From Candidatus Heimdallarchaeota archaeon (lineage in GTDB: Archaea > Asgardarchaeota > Heimdallarchaeia > Heimdallarchaeales > Heimdallarchaeaceae), in NCBI GenBank assembly GCA_019057815.1, contig JAHLWR010000008.1, positions 94,540-158,539 on the forward strand: 64,000 nucleotides of DNA, given 5' to 3'. Every line of letters starts with the position of its first letter. The first letter of the stretch is position 1. Position numbers and translations under genes: made by a program. The notes beneath the pieces are model-generated. The model made no database searches and was not told where the DNA came from. It saw nothing but the letters and a program-made list of their open reading frames with translations. Shown piece by piece: positions 1,547-11,851 of the stretch.

Positions 1547-2440
1547 ATGGATCAAAATACTAATGATATGGAAAAAAAACTCGATAAAAATTTCCTTAAG
1601 TTGACATTGTTTTTTATATTGGCTTTCATTATTTCGTGGTCAATTTGGTTGCCAAATGTTTTATCATCTCGAGGAATAATAGACATACCTGAATGGTATG
1701 GTATAGCAAGTAATTTAGCAGTATTTGGTCCATTTATATCTGCATTTATTATAGTATTAAGTTTCGAAGGGAAAAAGGGTGCAAAGAATTTATTAAAGAA
1801 AGGTTGGAAAGTAGGTTTTAATAAAAAATGGTTTATTCCATTATTATTGCTACCATTTATTATTTCAGGTTTATCCTTTACCTTTGGAGTCTTAGTTACT
1901 GGAGACACTTGGTCAGCAGTTTATCAAGATTCCAGTTTTGCAAATTCTATGTTAACTATCCTAATCATGTTCTTTCTAGGAGGACCTTTAGGTGAAGAAT
2001 TCGGATGGAGAGGATTTGCATTAACAAGGCTTCAGAAGAAATGGAATGCTGTAATTTCAAGCTTAGTGCTCGGTTTAATATGGGGATTATGGCATCTTCC
2101 TTTACATTTTATAACAGGTTCAATTCAGGAATATATTCCAATCTGGGCTGGTATTGCTATGATAAGTGTGAGTTCTTTTATTTATACATGGTTCTACAAT
2201 AATACAGGAGAGAGTGTCCTCATAGCTATGTTATATCATTGGTTAAGTAATGCTGCAGCAATCTTAATACCTTACTGGCAAAAAGGAGATATATGGGGAG
2301 GATTTGACAATCTTCCAAATTATCTAATTCCGACAATTGGTATGCTCGTAGCTTTTGTTTTATCCACAATCATAGTAGCAGTCATTGTAAAAATCTGGGG
2401 ATCAACTAGCTTCCAAAAAAAGGAAATAACTGTATCTTGA
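1547..2440 (+). CDS. CPBP/Abi (type II CAAX protease, Rce1-like) intramembrane metalloprotease
   Basis: EEFGWRG, WGLWH, HWLSN motifs; multiple TM helices. Confidence 0.9.
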   Translation: MDQNTNDMEKKLDKNFLKLTLFFILAFIISWSIWLPNVLSSRGIIDIPEWYGIASNLAVFGPFISAFIIVLSFEGKKGAKNLLKKGWKVGFNKKWFIPLLLLPFIISGLSFTFGVLVTGDTWSAVYQDSSFANSMLTILIMFFLGGPLGEEFGWRGFALTRLQKKWNAVISSLVLGLIWGLWHLPLHFITGSIQEYIPIWAGIAMISVSSFIYTWFYNNTGESVLIAMLYHWLSNAAAILIPYWQKGDIWGGFDNLPNYLIPTIGMLVAFVLSTIIVAVIVKIWGSTSFQKKEITVS

Positions 2441-2574
2441 TTTACTAAAAACAATTATTATATTCGCATCTTTGTGATTACTTGAATCTAGTTGAGAAAA
2501 TTGTAAACATTTTTATAAATCCGCAAAAAATAATGAAAAAATATACAGTAATTGCTGAATAATAGGTTATTCCT

Positions 2575-3669
2575 ATGATTAAACAACCAGAATCAAATTA
2601 TGAAATCGAACAATTTACTTTAAAAAAGGAAAACTTCAGTAATTTATCAAAGTTAATTACTGGGGCATTCCTAAACGATTCAACAGCACTAGTGGAAGGA
2701 GCAAGTGTTGCATTCACTGAAGAGACATTTAATACAATTTTTGGTGCTCCATCAGTTGATAGAAAACTCTTCATTAGAGCAATATTCAAACCAACTAATC
2801 AAATTGTAGGATTTTTAGGTTCAATTCCTCGAGACTTGAAAATAGAAGGAAAAGTATACAAATTTGCGATCCCTGCTTGGTTAAGTGTTCATTCAAAACA
2901 CCAAAGAAAAGGAATAGCTAAATTAATGGGAAAGAAGCTTTTTGAAATCGGTAAAGCAGCTGGTTATGATGGAGGTTTTTCGCTTCATGAACCAGAACAA
3001 CATGGTATAGATATTTCCAAAATTGTTGCACTAGAAGAAGACATACCTTTAGAAAGACTTGTAGCGCTTGATAAATTCATTGTTCGTGTTTTCGATGCTG
3101 AGAAAATAGCTTCTGTTGTGAAGATAAAATGGTACGAAAAACTATTATTCAAATTGCTTCAAAGCGTAAAGGGAGTGAATAATCCTAGAGTAAGAAAATA
3201 CAACTCAGAAGATATTGACCATATGTTAGAAATAATAAAAGAACAGGTTGATAAAAACCAAATAGCTATAGTACCTAACGCAGAAGATTTAGAATGGATT
3301 TTGGGAAACCCTAATGTTAACTGTGTAGTTCACGAAAATGAGGAAGGCAATGTAGATGGATTTATTTTAGTTTGGGAATTTAACTTAGCAGGTTTTGGCA
3401 ATAAAATCCCTTTTGGTTGGTTAGATATGATTCATATACATCGACTATCATTGAAGGAAGCAAGAGATTTATGTAAACTCATCTGTATCACTTCTAAACA
3501 AAAGGGTTGGGCAGGATTACAAACACCATATATTCCATACTTCGATTCCAAACCTTTTAAGAAAGCAAAATTCATTTTCTTCCCCAAAAAAATATCGATT
3601 GATATTTTCAATTTAAAGAACATTCCATTGCCTAAAAATGTTCAAGGTTTCTATTTTGACTGGAGGTAA
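2575..3669 (+). CDS. tandem-GNAT acyltransferase resembling eukaryotic glycylpeptide N-myristoyltransferase (NMT-like)
   Basis: IVGFLGSIP..WLSVHSKHQRKGIAKLM in the N-half, VVHENEEGNVDGFI in the C-half and a C-terminal tail parallel NMT segments (see findings). Confidence 0.65.
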   Translation: MIKQPESNYEIEQFTLKKENFSNLSKLITGAFLNDSTALVEGASVAFTEETFNTIFGAPSVDRKLFIRAIFKPTNQIVGFLGSIPRDLKIEGKVYKFAIPAWLSVHSKHQRKGIAKLMGKKLFEIGKAAGYDGGFSLHEPEQHGIDISKIVALEEDIPLERLVALDKFIVRVFDAEKIASVVKIKWYEKLLFKLLQSVKGVNNPRVRKYNSEDIDHMLEIIKEQVDKNQIAIVPNAEDLEWILGNPNVNCVVHENEEGNVDGFILVWEFNLAGFGNKIPFGWLDMIHIHRLSLKEARDLCKLICITSKQKGWAGLQTPYIPYFDSKPFKKAKFIFFPKKISIDIFNLKNIPLPKNVQGFYFDWR

Positions 3670-3727: not shown

Positions 3728-4606
3728 TTATTTTATTTCTTCCCATTGCTCTAATATGTAATAAACAAAACCTACAGCTAAGTCTAGAACGATTTTGTTT
3801 GATCTAGTAAATCTTGCTTCGACAATGTCAACATATTTCGCTTTTGGTAGGATTAGAGAGAGAATTTCAAGCACGAGTTGAGGTGTTAAGCCAAAAGGTT
3901 CTGATGTTGCTAAAGTAGGAACATAAGAATGATCTAAAACATCTAAATCTATACTAAGATAAATTCTTTCGAATTTGGAGATATACTCTTCTATGAATTT
4001 TAGTCCTTCTTTAGAATTTGTTAGTAGCTGTTGAGCTGACAGAAACATCACTTCTTTTGATTGGATTTTTTCATATTCTCCTAATGTTTGAGTATACGCA
4101 TGTCCTCCGATTAGTAACATTTGTTCACTTTTAAGATTTTTTTTTGCCTTTAAATTTGTAAAAACTGTCCCATGAGACTGAAAAACACCTTCTGGATATT
4201 CATCAGCTAAGTCAGCATGAGCATCTAACCAGATTACAGCTGTTTTATCGTCATAGTCAGCTTTTGAGAGAGTATCAAAGGTAATACTATGATCTCCTCC
4301 CAACACAATTAATTTAGCATCAAGTTCATAGATTTTTTCCCATATTTGGCCTATTTTTTTCTTTTCTTTTATTGGGTGAATATCACCTAGATCGAAATAA
4401 TCAGATTCGCTTATAGATGCACCATAAACAGCAGAAACACCAGAAAACTCTTCAGATTGTCTTCTTATAGCTTTAGGTCCTTTCCTTGAACCGCCCTTTG
4501 TGGTTTTAACCCTTTCAAATGGAATACCATATAAGAAAACGACATTCTTTTTGTTACATTCATCGAGATCGTTTAGAGTAAAGAATCCAGAAAAAGTTGG
4601 TTTCAT
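3728..4606 (-). CDS. speB: agmatinase/arginase-family ureohydrolase
   Basis: GGDHSIT, DAHADL, SHGT, SIDLDVLD metal-binding motifs. Confidence 0.8.
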   Translation of the reverse strand: MKPTFSGFFTLNDLDECNKKNVVFLYGIPFERVKTTKGGSRKGPKAIRRQSEEFSGVSAVYGASISESDYFDLGDIHPIKEKKKIGQIWEKIYELDAKLIVLGGDHSITFDTLSKADYDDKTAVIWLDAHADLADEYPEGVFQSHGTVFTNLKAKKNLKSEQMLLIGGHAYTQTLGEYEKIQSKEVMFLSAQQLLTNSKEGLKFIEEYISKFERIYLSIDLDVLDHSYVPTLATSEPFGLTPQLVLEILSLILPKAKYVDIVEARFTRSNKIVLDLAVGFVYYILEQWEEIK

Positions 4607-8422: not shown

Positions 8423-8524
8423 TTCTAAGAACTCACTTCATTCTGTTTGTTTTTAACAAAACTTACATTTTCTTTCAATGTCTCTAATAAAACTACCATT
8501 AACAAGAAAAGATGTGAAAACAAA

Positions 8525-11500
8525 ATGAATAACAAAGAACAAAAAATAATTAAAAACAAAAATAAGAAAATCATCTTTCCTAAAGATGAAAAGTTAGCAT
8601 TAATACGAACTATTGAGTACAGTAAACAAGATTGCGCAGCATTAGCAAGATGTTACAACTCATTCAAAGATTCAGACAGTTGGCCAGATGGTTTCGGAGG
8701 TTCATTTGTTTTCACAGGAGAATTCTTTGAAAGTCGACTTGAAAACAAAGATCTATCAGCGTGGTTTATTGCTAATACTCCAGATGATAGCACAAAAATT
8801 ATTGGTGTAAGTCTGTGCAATAGAAGTTGGGACATACCTAACGCTTGGTATGTTGGAATGTTAGGTGTTGATCCTGCATATCAGGGGCAGAAATTCGGGA
8901 AAGCCTTACTGCTCCTTTCAACACAGTTTGCTATGGAGAATAAAGCTAAATTTATCTCTCTAAACACTTGGGGTGGAAATTTAAAAGCGATGCCACTTTA
9001 CAAGAAGCAAGGCTACAAATGGCGACCTGATACTTCTGTTTATATGGAAAATTATATCCCGCAGATTCTTAATTTCTCTATGTTCCAAGAATTTTTTTCA
9101 GAAAATTATTGGTACGATGTTTTCAAACCCAATATAACACAAGAACCTGACTTGGAATTTACGGACAAAATGGCTACCTACGAGTATAGCTTTGAGAAAA
9201 ACGATAAGGAATCAATTAGAATATGGATTGATAGTTCTATAGCTAGAATTAGTGGTTTCCACATCATAACACTGAATGAGGATTTACTAATAAACGCTAA
9301 AACACCAAACTCTGATGCGTTCATAGGAGTTGAGAGTTTTCCAGTTCTTCTTGAAATAGATAATCAAGGAAAAAGCTCAAAGAAACTATCGATACAAATA
9401 AGCTCAAGTGAACAGATAGAGGTTGAAGGTACTACAACTTATGAAATTGAAGTGGAACCATCAGTTAAAAAGGAAATAGGAATCATTGGTATTTTCAAGG
9501 AAGAAACGGAAGAAATAGATACAAAAAGTCATCAACCAATCTACAGCAAACACGAAATTACATTTACTATAAAAATGAATGAACAGGAGTTTCAAGTCAA
9601 GATTGGAAAATATCCACAATATGCTTTAGATATCGATACTTATCCTTCCCACCTAATACTAGCTTCAGGCTGTAAAACAGCTATTCCCCTTGAAATCAAA
9701 AACAATATAAAAGAACAAAAAGCTGTTCGAGTTGAGCTAACTGATGGAAACTTAATCTCATTTGAACAACACAAATACTCCATCAACGTTTCAGCTTACG
9801 ATACACAGCTTAATATCACTGCTAATATTCAGAATACATCTACAAAAGTTGATTATGTAAACATGAAAGTTTACTCTGAAAGTGGAGAAAAAATTCGTGA
9901 TAAAGATGTTCCTATCCCAATTTTCAGCGAAAATACCGCAGTTACATATGAAACTAGCCAAAAGATACTTGTCGAAAACAAAAATGTTAGAGTATATCTA
10001 TACAAAGAACCTAATCCTGGGGCTAATAATGCTTTTATTGTTCATAAAAGAAGAAATGTTGAAATTGAAGGTAATAAATTAGTTCTAGGCTATCCTTTTG
10101 ATGAAAGCGGGTCAGAATTTAATACAAAACAATTAGAGCATTCGACTTTAAAAGATCCAAATGGAATTTGGCTCACAGGTTCTGCTAAATCTGATGAAAA
10201 AGAAGGAGTTAGAATTATTCGTAAGGTTTTTGTTTCAAATGATGAGGATCTAATAGGAGTATGTTTTGAACTTGAGAACTTAACTGATGAGAAAAAAGAC
10301 AATCTTGGTGTTGAACATGTATTTTGGTGGTGGCGTGGAGCTCAAAAATTGAAAAAGCAAATTTTTCCTCTAAAAACAGGAATTGTCCATAGAGCTATCC
10401 ACGAATTAAAGGCTGATCTTGGGAAAGACCCTTCTAGCTTCACAGAAGGATGGAAAGCTCTAGTTTATCCTTCAGTAGTTCTGGGGATATTATTTGATAT
10501 AAATAAAATTGAAAAGATTAGTGTTGACTCGAATTTCCCACATATCGAAGCCAAACTTGAAACTCTTGAACCTGGAAAGGAATACAAGTTCCCAGCAATG
10601 TGGTTCTACTTCACAGACAAGTGGCAGAGCGTTAGAGATAAATGGAGAGAACTATATTCCCAAGATCCTCATAGAACGCTAGAGTACTCATATCAGACAT
10701 CTCCAATAAATAAGATTGGTCTATCTATTCAAGAAGGAAGACAATCCATTGCTAGAAGTCTGATAGTAGATAAGAATCAGATGACAGTAGATGTTGTTAT
10801 CGATACAATAAAAGAATCTACAATGAAAGGAGAAATTGTTGTTGATTTTGATAAAATAAATCATAAAGCAAATTATATCCTTGACAATATTAAAACTTAT
10901 CAATGGAGAAAGGAGATATCACTTCCTCAGATAGATAAAAACATCATTTCAGGTTCGATTGAATTCAACACTTATACTCGAACATATTCACTTCAAACAG
11001 CTGTTGGATACTATGATAAATCACAAAATGTTAAAATTCTGACAAAATCTGAAGATTCCAGAGAATATCTAGAAGTAGATAATGGATTTCTAAAATTTAG
11101 AGGTTCAAAGAATCATCGAGGAAATATATTTTATCTATCAATAGAAAATAGCGAAAATTATCTTATAAGTCACTTTCCAGAAGTCAAACCCTTTTTGTGG
11201 AGCAACAAATATTTTGGTGGTATAGGTAGCTCTATACGTGAAATAAACGCCTGGCAACTTGAAGACTATAATTTGTTAAATTTTGAATCCAATCAGGTAC
11301 AAAAAGGTATATGGAAAGGAATAAGCTTTAAATCTGAGATAATTGAGTATTCACCCAAACTTAAAGGATTACAGAATACTACAACTTATTTAACACTACC
11401 AGACGCACCTTTCTTACTTGTTCAACAGGAAATTACAAATCACTCGGAAACTACAAGAATACTTGACGCTACGCAAATAGGATGCTTTGCTACATCGAAA

Positions 11501-11851
11501 ACAGATAAAGATGAATATTATGTTTCAGTTGATGGAAAATTAACTAGATACAACATCCAAGACCATGAATCTCAAGTGTGGAATCAATCAGATACAGATA
11601 CAAGTTGGATAGCATTCAAGAATCATGATAATAAGTTTGTTATTGGAATGATTAACCAACCAAGTAATAGATTTATAGAGCAAGTGGATCCTTATTCGCC
11701 TAATTTCTCGGTATTTGAGTTCTTTAAAATACTAAAATTTGTCAAAATTAAACCTAAAGAAACAATAAATACCCATGTTCTATACGTCTTTGCTAACAGT
11801 ACCGATGAGATTGAACCATTTACTCAAAGCAATTTAACAGACTTACTCTAA
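8525..11851 (+). CDS. large GNAT-domain protein (N-terminal acetyltransferase plus about 900 aa beta-rich region)
   Basis: LGVDPAYQGQKFGKALL, TWGGNLKAMPLYKKQGY; ATG at 8525 preferred over the TTG at 8447. Confidence 0.8.
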   Translation: MNNKEQKIIKNKNKKIIFPKDEKLALIRTIEYSKQDCAALARCYNSFKDSDSWPDGFGGSFVFTGEFFESRLENKDLSAWFIANTPDDSTKIIGVSLCNRSWDIPNAWYVGMLGVDPAYQGQKFGKALLLLSTQFAMENKAKFISLNTWGGNLKAMPLYKKQGYKWRPDTSVYMENYIPQILNFSMFQEFFSENYWYDVFKPNITQEPDLEFTDKMATYEYSFEKNDKESIRIWIDSSIARISGFHIITLNEDLLINAKTPNSDAFIGVESFPVLLEIDNQGKSSKKLSIQISSSEQIEVEGTTTYEIEVEPSVKKEIGIIGIFKEETEEIDTKSHQPIYSKHEITFTIKMNEQEFQVKIGKYPQYALDIDTYPSHLILASGCKTAIPLEIKNNIKEQKAVRVELTDGNLISFEQHKYSINVSAYDTQLNITANIQNTSTKVDYVNMKVYSESGEKIRDKDVPIPIFSENTAVTYETSQKILVENKNVRVYLYKEPNPGANNAFIVHKRRNVEIEGNKLVLGYPFDESGSEFNTKQLEHSTLKDPNGIWLTGSAKSDEKEGVRIIRKVFVSNDEDLIGVCFELENLTDEKKDNLGVEHVFWWWRGAQKLKKQIFPLKTGIVHRAIHELKADLGKDPSSFTEGWKALVYPSVVLGILFDINKIEKISVDSNFPHIEAKLETLEPGKEYKFPAMWFYFTDKWQSVRDKWRELYSQDPHRTLEYSYQTSPINKIGLSIQEGRQSIARSLIVDKNQMTVDVVIDTIKESTMKGEIVVDFDKINHKANYILDNIKTYQWRKEISLPQIDKNIISGSIEFNTYTRTYSLQTAVGYYDKSQNVKILTKSEDSREYLEVDNGFLKFRGSKNHRGNIFYLSIENSENYLISHFPEVKPFLWSNKYFGGIGSSIREINAWQLEDYNLLNFESNQVQKGIWKGISFKSEIIEYSPKLKGLQNTTTYLTLPDAPFLLVQQEITNHSETTRILDATQIGCFATSKTDKDEYYVSVDGKLTRYNIQDHESQVWNQSDTDTSWIAFKNHDNKFVIGMINQPSNRFIEQVDPYSPNFSVFEFFKILKFVKIKPKETINTHVLYVFANSTDEIEPFTQSNLTDLL

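Follow-up and report, generated by a model that had tools for sequence, protein, structure and literature searches.

An N-myristoyltransferase-type double-GNAT protein of a Heimdall-group Asgard archaeon, very probably an N-acyltransferase of a prokaryote-wide family

N-myristoyltransferase (NMT) is commonly seen as having arisen in eukaryotes, in connection with the targeting of proteins such as Arf GTPases to membranes. A gene in a 64,000-nucleotide stretch of the genome of a Candidatus Heimdallarchaeota archaeon (contig JAHLWR010000008.1; the whole stretch is referred to as the window) raises the question of whether such an enzyme is also found in archaea, and what it would acylate there. 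The open reading frame at 2575..3669 on the plus strand starts with ATG, ends with TAA (the stop codon is included in these coordinates) and encodes a protein of 364 amino acids (P0001), which an earlier note on this DNA, comparing it to segments of human NMT1, had read as a full-length NMT-like protein with two GNAT domains and as a candidate prokaryotic precursor of N-terminal protein lipidation. The gene is present in one copy in its host, a Heimdall-group Asgard archaeon (3.74 Mb, 48 contigs, 32.8% GC, 95% completeness; the window lies on contig C27). The protein is very probably an NMT-type acyl-coenzyme A (acyl-CoA) N-acyltransferase of a family that extends throughout the prokaryotes. 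The explanation that we prefer as a whole, i.e., an NMT-type N-acyltransferase acting on a fixed polar amine, has a rough probability of 0.5.

The relationship to NMT was assessed first by sequence. The peptide blocks quoted in the earlier note are all present in the translation. The Pfam model of the NMT N-terminal domain (PF01233) matched residues 9-120 with 27.6 bits relative to a curated cut-off of 25 (E 3.1e-6), which is a small margin, and the same model had matches in 0/14 control prokaryote genomes. The model of the NMT C-terminal domain (PF02799, NMT_C) did not match the 364-residue protein even at E-values up to 10; of the two Pfam models that the earlier note had proposed as a check, the first was therefore matched above its cut-off and the second was not. 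NCBIfam gave no match to the protein, generic GNAT models were also matched (in Pfam, Acetyltransf_9 over residues 72-130), and a single-sequence search of the PDB returned weak NMT matches only. In databases, 142 homologues of about 360-365 residues and 46-91% identity were found, with source names from Heimdall-, Loki-, Thor-, Gerd- and Sigynarchaeota and with the cultured Lokiarchaeum ossiferum among them. When a profile of 42 homologues was compared to solved structures, the top 36 matches were all NMTs (best E 3.2e-12), with the PDB NMTs matched in two collinear stretches, one per lobe (residues 18-127 and 200-263/312); the next GNATs followed at E-values of at least 0.02, and Eis at E-values of at least 0.26. 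Alignment by hhalign to a eukaryotic NMT alignment of 14 sequences had a probability of 99.7% and an E-value of 1.3e-25 over 310 collinear columns; residues 18-349 were matched to 135-452 of a 465-residue NMT, and tails of 15 and 13 residues stayed unaligned. Every block pairing with NMT proposed in the earlier note was reproduced by this profile-profile alignment, at an identity to eukaryotic NMTs of 13-17%. The protein is a full-length, genuine NMT homologue, and the match is far beyond chance.

The predicted fold is consistent with this. The AlphaFold2 model had a predicted local distance difference test score (pLDDT) of 94 and a predicted template modelling (TM) score of 0.91. The top 50 structures returned by Foldseek were all NMTs (E about 1e-22, TM scores 0.72-0.78), and re-alignment of the Foldseek list by VIA gave Z-scores of 31-33 for NMT, with a root-mean-square deviation of 2.5-2.8 Å over about 331-335 residues. 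In an exhaustive structural search that covered 48,161 representative chains, yeast NMT (Z 31.4) and Cryptosporidium NMT (29.7) were followed by MAB_4324 (22.9) and Eis (20.5), and single-domain N-acetyltransferase (NAT) structures reached Z about 15 with one lobe covered. The best structural matches are thus NMTs and not generic tandem GNATs (Z 31-33 versus 20-23), and sequence profiles and model together bear out the full-length, two-GNAT protein of the earlier note. As modelled, the chain forms two GNAT lobes in the NMT arrangement. The N-terminal lobe (residues 6-172; 2590..3090, plus strand), delimited by Pfam, the PDB profile and the secondary structure of the model, is predicted to bind acyl-CoA and to be catalytic. 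The C-terminal lobe (residues 206-346; 3190..3612, plus strand), to which the PDB profile matches at 200-263/312 and hhalign extends through 349, is predicted to bind the acceptor; its conserved residues are R207, D213, G262, W267, G273, G275, G281, W282, D284, H287, G311, W312, Q316, Y322, F333 and K338.

The pyrophosphate-binding motif of GNAT proteins is defined as Q/R-x-x-G-x-G/A, and the N-terminal lobe carries a canonical copy, Q110-R-K-G-I-A115 (2902..2919, plus strand), at the start of helix 114-128. H109, G113 and A115 are invariant or near-invariant in the 42 homologues, whereas the aligned segment of NMT, KLRxKR(V/I)AP, is a degenerate form of the motif. The earlier note had further claimed that the chain ends at the position equivalent to the C-terminus of NMT, the carboxylate of which is the catalytic base (PMC7048800). 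This proved correct: the alignments run up to model residue 364, which faces the final residue of NMT in human (Gln496), yeast (Leu455) and A. fumigatus (492), and likewise in L. major (421), P. vivax (410), C. albicans (451) and C. parvum (466). The C-terminal tail Y360-F-D-W-R364 (3652..3666, plus strand) corresponds in structure to the catalytic C-terminus of NMT, and its end is fixed, i.e., in the 42 homologues the length of the tail never varies, R364 is invariant and W363 is present in at least 90%. Residues W102-L103 (2878..2883, plus strand) lie opposite Phe247-Leu248 of NMT, in the strand bulge where the backbone amides of these two residues form the oxyanion hole (PMC7048800), and may have the same function here.

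A mechanism can be proposed in which the N-terminal GNAT lobe would bind acyl-CoA via its pyrophosphate loop (QRKGIA), the strand bulge at W102-L103 would serve as the oxyanion hole, and the C-terminal lobe and the buried tail Y-F-D-W-R-COO- would together make an acceptor site between the lobes. Either the terminal carboxylate, as in NMT, or the conserved Glu139 of an insert with the sequence HEPEQHG would take the proton from the acceptor amine, which would then attack the thioester. In this scheme we infer catalysis, the base, and the nature of both the acceptor and the acyl chain.

The glycine pocket is different from that of NMT. Tyr180, Tyr192, Asn246 and Thr282 are strictly conserved residues of the Gly pocket and water network of NMT, and Glu244 is an alternative base (PMC7048800); in the hhalign alignment, Asn246 is replaced by Ala101, Thr282 by Leu137 and Glu244 by Ile99. 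At the level of motifs, EINFLCVHK reads IPAWLSVHS, YTAG reads FSL followed by a 17-residue insert with HEPEQHG, and YWHR reads FIVR with the Arg alone kept, which confirms the remark in the earlier note that EINF and YTAG are not conserved. Arg171 is the residue opposite the conserved Arg of YWHR, and D213 and F333 are also kept relative to NMT. The insert H138-E-P-E-Q-H-G144 (2986..3006, plus strand) replaces YTAG, with its Thr282 platform, and is a candidate for the general base: E139, H143 and G144 are invariant or near-invariant, and E/D139 is kept in nearly all prokaryotic groups of the family. The first ~45 residues of the NMT catalytic core, FWxTQPV among them, are missing, and the start of the model faces human residue 153. 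Conversely, E/D139, D284, K/R338 and the terminal Arg are common to distant archaeal and bacterial groups and are not shared by eukaryotic NMT. These differences bear on the possibility of a strict functional NMT orthologue, which would myristoylate Gly2 proteins (those with glycine at position 2) such as Arf GTPases and would have been inherited vertically from a Heimdall-type ancestor. Such an orthologue would account for the same fold and chain end, for the Pfam N-domain match above the cut-off and for the Heimdall-group host; with NMT_C unmatched, and with EINF, YTAG, YWHR and the pocket-1 residues replaced, we regard it as highly improbable. The protein is homologous to eukaryotic NMT and is not an orthologue with NMT specificity.

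The proteins available for acylation were considered next to the enzyme. The earlier note had proposed a census of MGxxxS proteins, and the census went against the idea: Gly2 occurs in 102/2839 crude open reading frames, i.e., 3.6% compared to a background of 5.7-6.5%, which is a genome-wide depletion, and a Gly2 'myristoylome' was rejected on this basis. Eight crude open reading frames fit the eukaryotic NMT motif, and some of these have obvious internal starts. The three strong Arf-like GTPases of the genome start with MSAISSF, MLGSFSS and MSLLGIR and have no Gly2, in agreement with two papers in which Asgard Arfs are without Gly2 (PMC11914678; bioRxiv 2024.02.28.582541); this, too, counts against a strict NMT orthologue. 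Outside the window, G000:C36:111000-119000 has six Arf-family matches within about 8 kb on both strands, five of ~300-325 residues with long C-terminal extensions and one of 190 residues. Two adjacent ESCRT-III (Snf7-family) genes, also outside the window (G000:C38:224931-226251, minus strand), can both be read as MG starts, and their N-terminal motifs, F-x-N/D-F-M-G-W-L-L-G and K-N-W-L-F-G, are conserved and amphipathic. Both genes, however, appear to start with non-ATG codons (TTG and GTG), so that calls based on ATG would yield an artefactual MG start. For one paralogue the MG falls within the conserved helix, with the start upstream, and is replaced by MR or MK in two genomes; the other paralogue has a Gly2 that is not conserved and that is also seen in a genome without the NMT-type gene. 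After comparison with 10 other Asgard genomes, ESCRT-III was rejected as a Vps20-like Gly2 substrate.

A wider proposal is that of a protein N-terminal acyltransferase, which would transfer a fatty or other acyl group to the alpha-amine of Gly or of another residue and would be a prokaryotic counterpart or precursor of N-myristoylation. We keep it as a tentative alternative. Among characterised relatives, NMT stands much the closest in both sequence and fold, and the C-terminal residue is placed where the catalytic carboxylate of NMT sits, but the Gly-pocket residues of NMT are not kept and the FWxTQPV segment is missing. The gene is stand-alone, with its own promoter-like box and without a conserved operon, and identity across Asgard classes is 46-65%. 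An acyl-CoA dehydrogenase is encoded in the genome, and acyl-CoAs are therefore plausible metabolites; the Arfs without Gly2, the depletion of Gly2, and the MG of ESCRT-III that does not track the gene all speak against this proposal.

How far the family extends was assessed by an exhaustive profile search that covered 1.84 billion representatives. The search retrieved 261 proteins, made up of the Asgard core, about ten groups of 330-410 residues, and the eukaryotic NMTs; among 90 full-length (≥308-residue) matches below the Asgard core, Pfam found NMT_C in 24 and the NMT N-domain in 45. Named prokaryotic members beyond the Asgard core come from Sigynarchaeota, Thermoplasmata and Woesearchaeota (DPANN), and group B3 is found in Planctomycete-type contexts; the taxonomy of several outer groups rests on few names, on gene contexts and on the taxa of ESM-Atlas clusters. 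By language-model features and structure, the nearest ESM-Atlas clusters are bacterial (TM scores 0.81-0.87; Aminicenantota, Pseudomonadota, Acidobacteriota, Myxococcota and others), and rank above the eukaryotic NMT clusters (0.80-0.81) and giant-virus NMTs. Many prokaryotic groups, including most sister groups, end in Y-x-D/E-h-R, and the prokaryotic family has a signature of ~345-365 residues, this Y-x-D/E-h-R end, E/D139, D284 and K/R338; all of these are present in the window's protein (tail FYFDWR), and the signature residues are kept across groups ASG, E, D, B1, B3, B5 and others. Compared to the Asgard profile, every prokaryotic group gave E-values of 8e-21 to 8e-45. No fused longer forms of the family turned up, which is weak evidence. 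The premise of the earlier note that NMT is regarded as a eukaryotic enzyme is outdated, with NMT-type double GNATs reported in archaea and bacteria (PMC12219266).

Nor is the family a link between eukaryotes and Asgard archaea in particular, since Thermoplasmata, DPANN and many bacterial phyla have members too and since group B1 scores as high against NMT. In hhalign comparisons with eukaryotic NMT, the groups had E-values of 1e-13 to 8.5e-28, the latter for B1 compared to 1.3e-25 for the Asgard core, a further point against strict orthology. In a posterior mean site frequency tree of 96 sequences, eukaryotic NMTs formed one long-stemmed clade (support 100) that joined an unresolved prokaryotic radiation. 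The Asgard core grouped with group E (support 96; one named member, from Sigynarchaeota) and not with the eukaryotes, i.e., eukaryotic NMTs are neither nested in nor sister to the Asgard clade, as a strict NMT orthologue of vertical descent would have them. Approximately unbiased (AU) tests (IQ-TREE, LG+G4, fast search, 59 sequences) gave p-values of 0.19 for eukaryotes with Asgard, 0.25 for eukaryotes with Asgard and group E, 0.24 for eukaryotes with B1, and 0.14 for eukaryotes with F, and the sole placement to be rejected was that of eukaryotes with D (p 0.03). An N-terminal acyltransferase that was the precursor of N-myristoylation draws some support from the p-values of 0.19-0.25, by which a clade of eukaryotes and Asgard archaea is not rejected. 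From the tree and the AU tests, an origin of eukaryotic NMT from the Asgard clade is therefore neither backed nor rejected.

Within Asgard archaea the distribution is patchy. The gene was matched in 43/301 genomes: 23/28 in the window's family (f1), 11/11 in f6, 7/7 in f27 and 1/76 in f11, and no match turned up in the remaining families searched, among them f2, the sister family of the same order (0/11). That the gene was not found in most of the Asgard genomes searched, nor in that sister family, argues further against vertical inheritance of a strict NMT orthologue. The ratio of non-synonymous to synonymous substitution (dN/dS) is 0.30 relative to an orthologue of the same genus and 0.10-0.24 relative to more distant ones, for which dS is saturated, and the gene is under purifying selection. 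Each of the two closed genomes from a sister genus carries a broken copy, disrupted in its own way. The first (G068, C1:1138000-1141500) has a 1.8-kb insertion that splits the gene at about residue 150; the element spans ~745-2551 of that locus, with a 500-residue TnpB/Cas12f-like open reading frame and 20-nt inverted repeats (arms 725-744 and 2552-2571). In the second (G015, C1:1011300-1013000), a segment of ~200 bp for residues 76-143, the CoA-binding part, is inverted, which could be a scar of the same element as in G068 or an invertible switch. Purifying selection together with breakage in the sister genus indicates that the gene is selected where present, yet dispensable. Patchiness in Asgard archaea, dispensability in the sister genus and wide occurrence in bacteria are further points against an N-terminal acyltransferase.

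One copy of the core family, P0075, is 53% identical to the window's protein, has the FYFDWR end, was seen in 70 collection blocks, and lies on contigs labelled Smithella that also carry SurA, Mfd/TRCF, UvrA and MoeA. These contigs are bacterial and therefore indicate transfer between domains, probably from an Asgard archaeon to a bacterium or the reverse. P0075 stands between a divergent gene for an ADP-forming acetyl-CoA synthetase and a co-directional gene for a 2-oxoacid-dehydrogenase-like acyltransferase. An acetyl-CoA synthetase next to an acetyltransferase gene recalls acs-acuA arrangements, and a short-chain (acetyl or propionyl) protein acetyltransferase that shares the NMT architecture, acting on N-termini or on lysine (e.g., to regulate acyl-CoA synthetases), has to be weighed. 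The canonical Q/RxxGxA loop is typical of acetyl-CoA users, and the N-terminal segment that helps NMT to hold myristoyl-CoA is missing. Besides the Smithella-type contigs, a second relative, P0221, adjoins a convergent gene for an AMP-forming acetyl-CoA synthetase. This adjacency, however, is found in 2 of ~14 contexts and at no Asgard locus, and single-domain NATs match far less well (Z ~15) and over one lobe; we consider a short-chain acetyltransferase unlikely. In group B3, two Planctomycete-like genomes share the gene order 3-keto-disaccharide hydrolase, sulfatase, NMT-type GNAT and stand-alone LPG_synthase_C. LPG_synthase_C is the catalytic domain of aminoacyl-lipid synthase, and the synteny is a possible hint at action on aminoacylated lipids.

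At the locus itself, the NMT-type gene is intact, expressed-looking and stand-alone. It is preceded by an AT-rich gap of 134 bp, inside which a TATA-like box, TTTTTATAAAT (2510..2520, plus strand), lies ~55 nt 5' of the ATG and, read from sequence alone, is a putative promoter of its own. Directly upstream (1547-2440, plus strand) is a gene for an Rce1-like CPBP membrane protease of 297 residues (type II CAAX prenyl endopeptidase family), so that two 'eukaryotic lipidation-associated' families adjoin; the pairing is missing at four other Asgard loci, and the adjacency is probably a coincidence. Downstream, an arginase/agmatinase-family gene (3728-4606, minus strand) is convergent with the NMT-type gene at a distance of 59 bp, and in group B6 (P0181) a pyruvoyl arginine decarboxylase gene lies 24 bp upstream on the same strand; the agmatinase-like gene and the arginine decarboxylase are two unrelated polyamine-pathway neighbours and too few to build on. 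The Rce1-like protease and the convergent arginase-family gene were rejected as conserved partners because they are not kept at four Asgard loci, and across the window and these four loci the NMT-type gene has no shared neighbour. The orthologue of the cultured Lokiarchaeum ossiferum (P0117, 386 residues; locus CP163304.1 5556226-5569386) has two neighbours on its own strand, a gene for a Ras/Arf-like small GTPase 200 bp upstream and one for a CDP-alcohol phosphatidyltransferase 36 bp downstream. This small GTPase was rejected as a substrate, since it starts with MTASKS and is without Gly2. Elsewhere in the window (8447-11851, plus strand), a protein of 1134 residues has a GNAT domain at ~94-191 followed by ~940 residues without a Pfam match.

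Taken together, the replaced Gly-pocket residues, the charged residues shared within the family, the Arfs without Gly2 and the depletion of Gly2 argue against an NMT-like specificity for glycine and for a fixed polar ligand. At about even odds, the acceptor is a fixed polar amine and not the Gly2 N-termini of many proteins, with a small metabolite, a lipid head group, and a polyamine or amino-acid-like compound as candidates. The accessory character of the gene (43/301 genomes, disruption in two closed genomes, a copy on bacterial contigs) was counted in favour of this reading. Between the acceptors, we assign roughly half of the weight to a fixed polar amine, about a third to protein N-termini, about a tenth to short-chain protein acetylation and the rest to others. 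Several points weigh against a fixed polar amine. Protein N-termini are the acceptors of NMT, which is the one close homologue to have been characterised. The lack of a conserved operon partner suits an enzyme that modifies proteins in general no less well than it suits a metabolic enzyme, and genes nearby that might suggest a role in amine, lipid or acyl-CoA metabolism are scattered and none recurs: agmatinase-like in the window, arginine decarboxylase in B6, LPG_synthase_C in Planctomycetes, CDP-alcohol phosphatidyltransferase in L. ossiferum. The equivalence of the C-terminus comes from the end points of structural alignments, which give its position, and from this we infer a buried tail and the dimensions of the acyl pocket. 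The Gly2 census, finally, was made from crude open reading frame calls with uncertain starts.

A conserved prokaryotic family with the fold and chain end of NMT is a concrete entry point to the origin of N-terminal lipidation and, because one member is found in a cultured Asgard archaeon, this question is open to experiment. In the most far-reaching case, some Heimdall- and Loki-type Asgard lineages, including Lokiarchaeum ossiferum, would acylate protein N-termini by a rule other than Gly2, N-terminal lipidation would be older than eukaryotes, and eukaryotic NMT would have descended from the prokaryotic family and specialised anew; we think it unlikely that all of this holds together. The significance is tempered by the facts that the family is not specific to Asgard archaea, that its glycine pocket is different, that the obvious substrates have no Gly2, and that the existence of such proteins is already in print. 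The protein is not shown here as a myristoyltransferase, as a glycine-specific enzyme or as the ancestor of eukaryotic NMT. Its value lies in a well-defined enzyme family rather than in a demonstrated precursor of protein lipidation.

In the open literature, we found no paper that ties NMT to Asgard archaea. The closest published account is a study of HisAT/NAT16 (PMC12219266, Nat Commun 2025), in which a search of the AlphaFold database noted NMT-type double GNATs in archaea and bacteria; its table of archaeal double GNATs includes a Thorarchaeota entry and a Euryarchaeota entry annotated as glycylpeptide N-tetradecanoyltransferase. That paper reports the existence of NMT-type structures and no function for them. 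As modelled, the window's protein has the feature used there to define the type, being a double GNAT that, like NMT1, has its chain end at the active site. That paper does not deal with the Asgard subfamily, with its invariant chain end FYFDWR or with where it occurs.

Among known enzymes, the eukaryotic and giant-virus NMTs (EC 2.3.1.97; PF01233 and PF02799; e.g., human NMT1 and yeast Nmt1p) are likewise built from one chain with two GNAT lobes, but their terminal residue is a variable hydrophobic residue or Gln, whereas here it is an invariant Arg after Trp. The tandem GNATs MAB_4324c (7q3a), Eis (3sxn), MshD (1ozp), CBG (2wpw) and PH0ddd (3ddd) also have two lobes, with the acceptor between them. 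Most such tandem GNATs act on small amines, with acyl-CoA bound by the N-lobe; MshD is mycothiol synthase, and CBG belongs to the clavulanate pathway. They are more distant from the protein than NMT is (Z 15-23 versus 31-33 for NMT; sequence E-values of at least 0.26), and the alignment with MAB_4324 (7q3a), the closest structure outside NMT, ends at model residue 347, short of the tail. A Fem-type, aminoacyl-tRNA-dependent transferase was considered and rejected: FemABX proteins are not among the top 50 structures, the one aminoacyl-tRNA-dependent enzyme among these 50, the Sbb17 peptide synthase (9wqx), stands at rank 50 with Z 13.8, and the CoA loop is canonical. HisAT/NAT16 (9emd; Z 14.9) is again a double GNAT with the acceptor between the lobes, but at the position of the NMT C-terminus it has a beta-hairpin and not a chain end. 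The substrate-binding Trp of HisAT overlaps the position of the NMT C-terminal Gln496 (PMC12219266), and in the protein of the window the near-invariant Trp363 precedes the terminal Arg.

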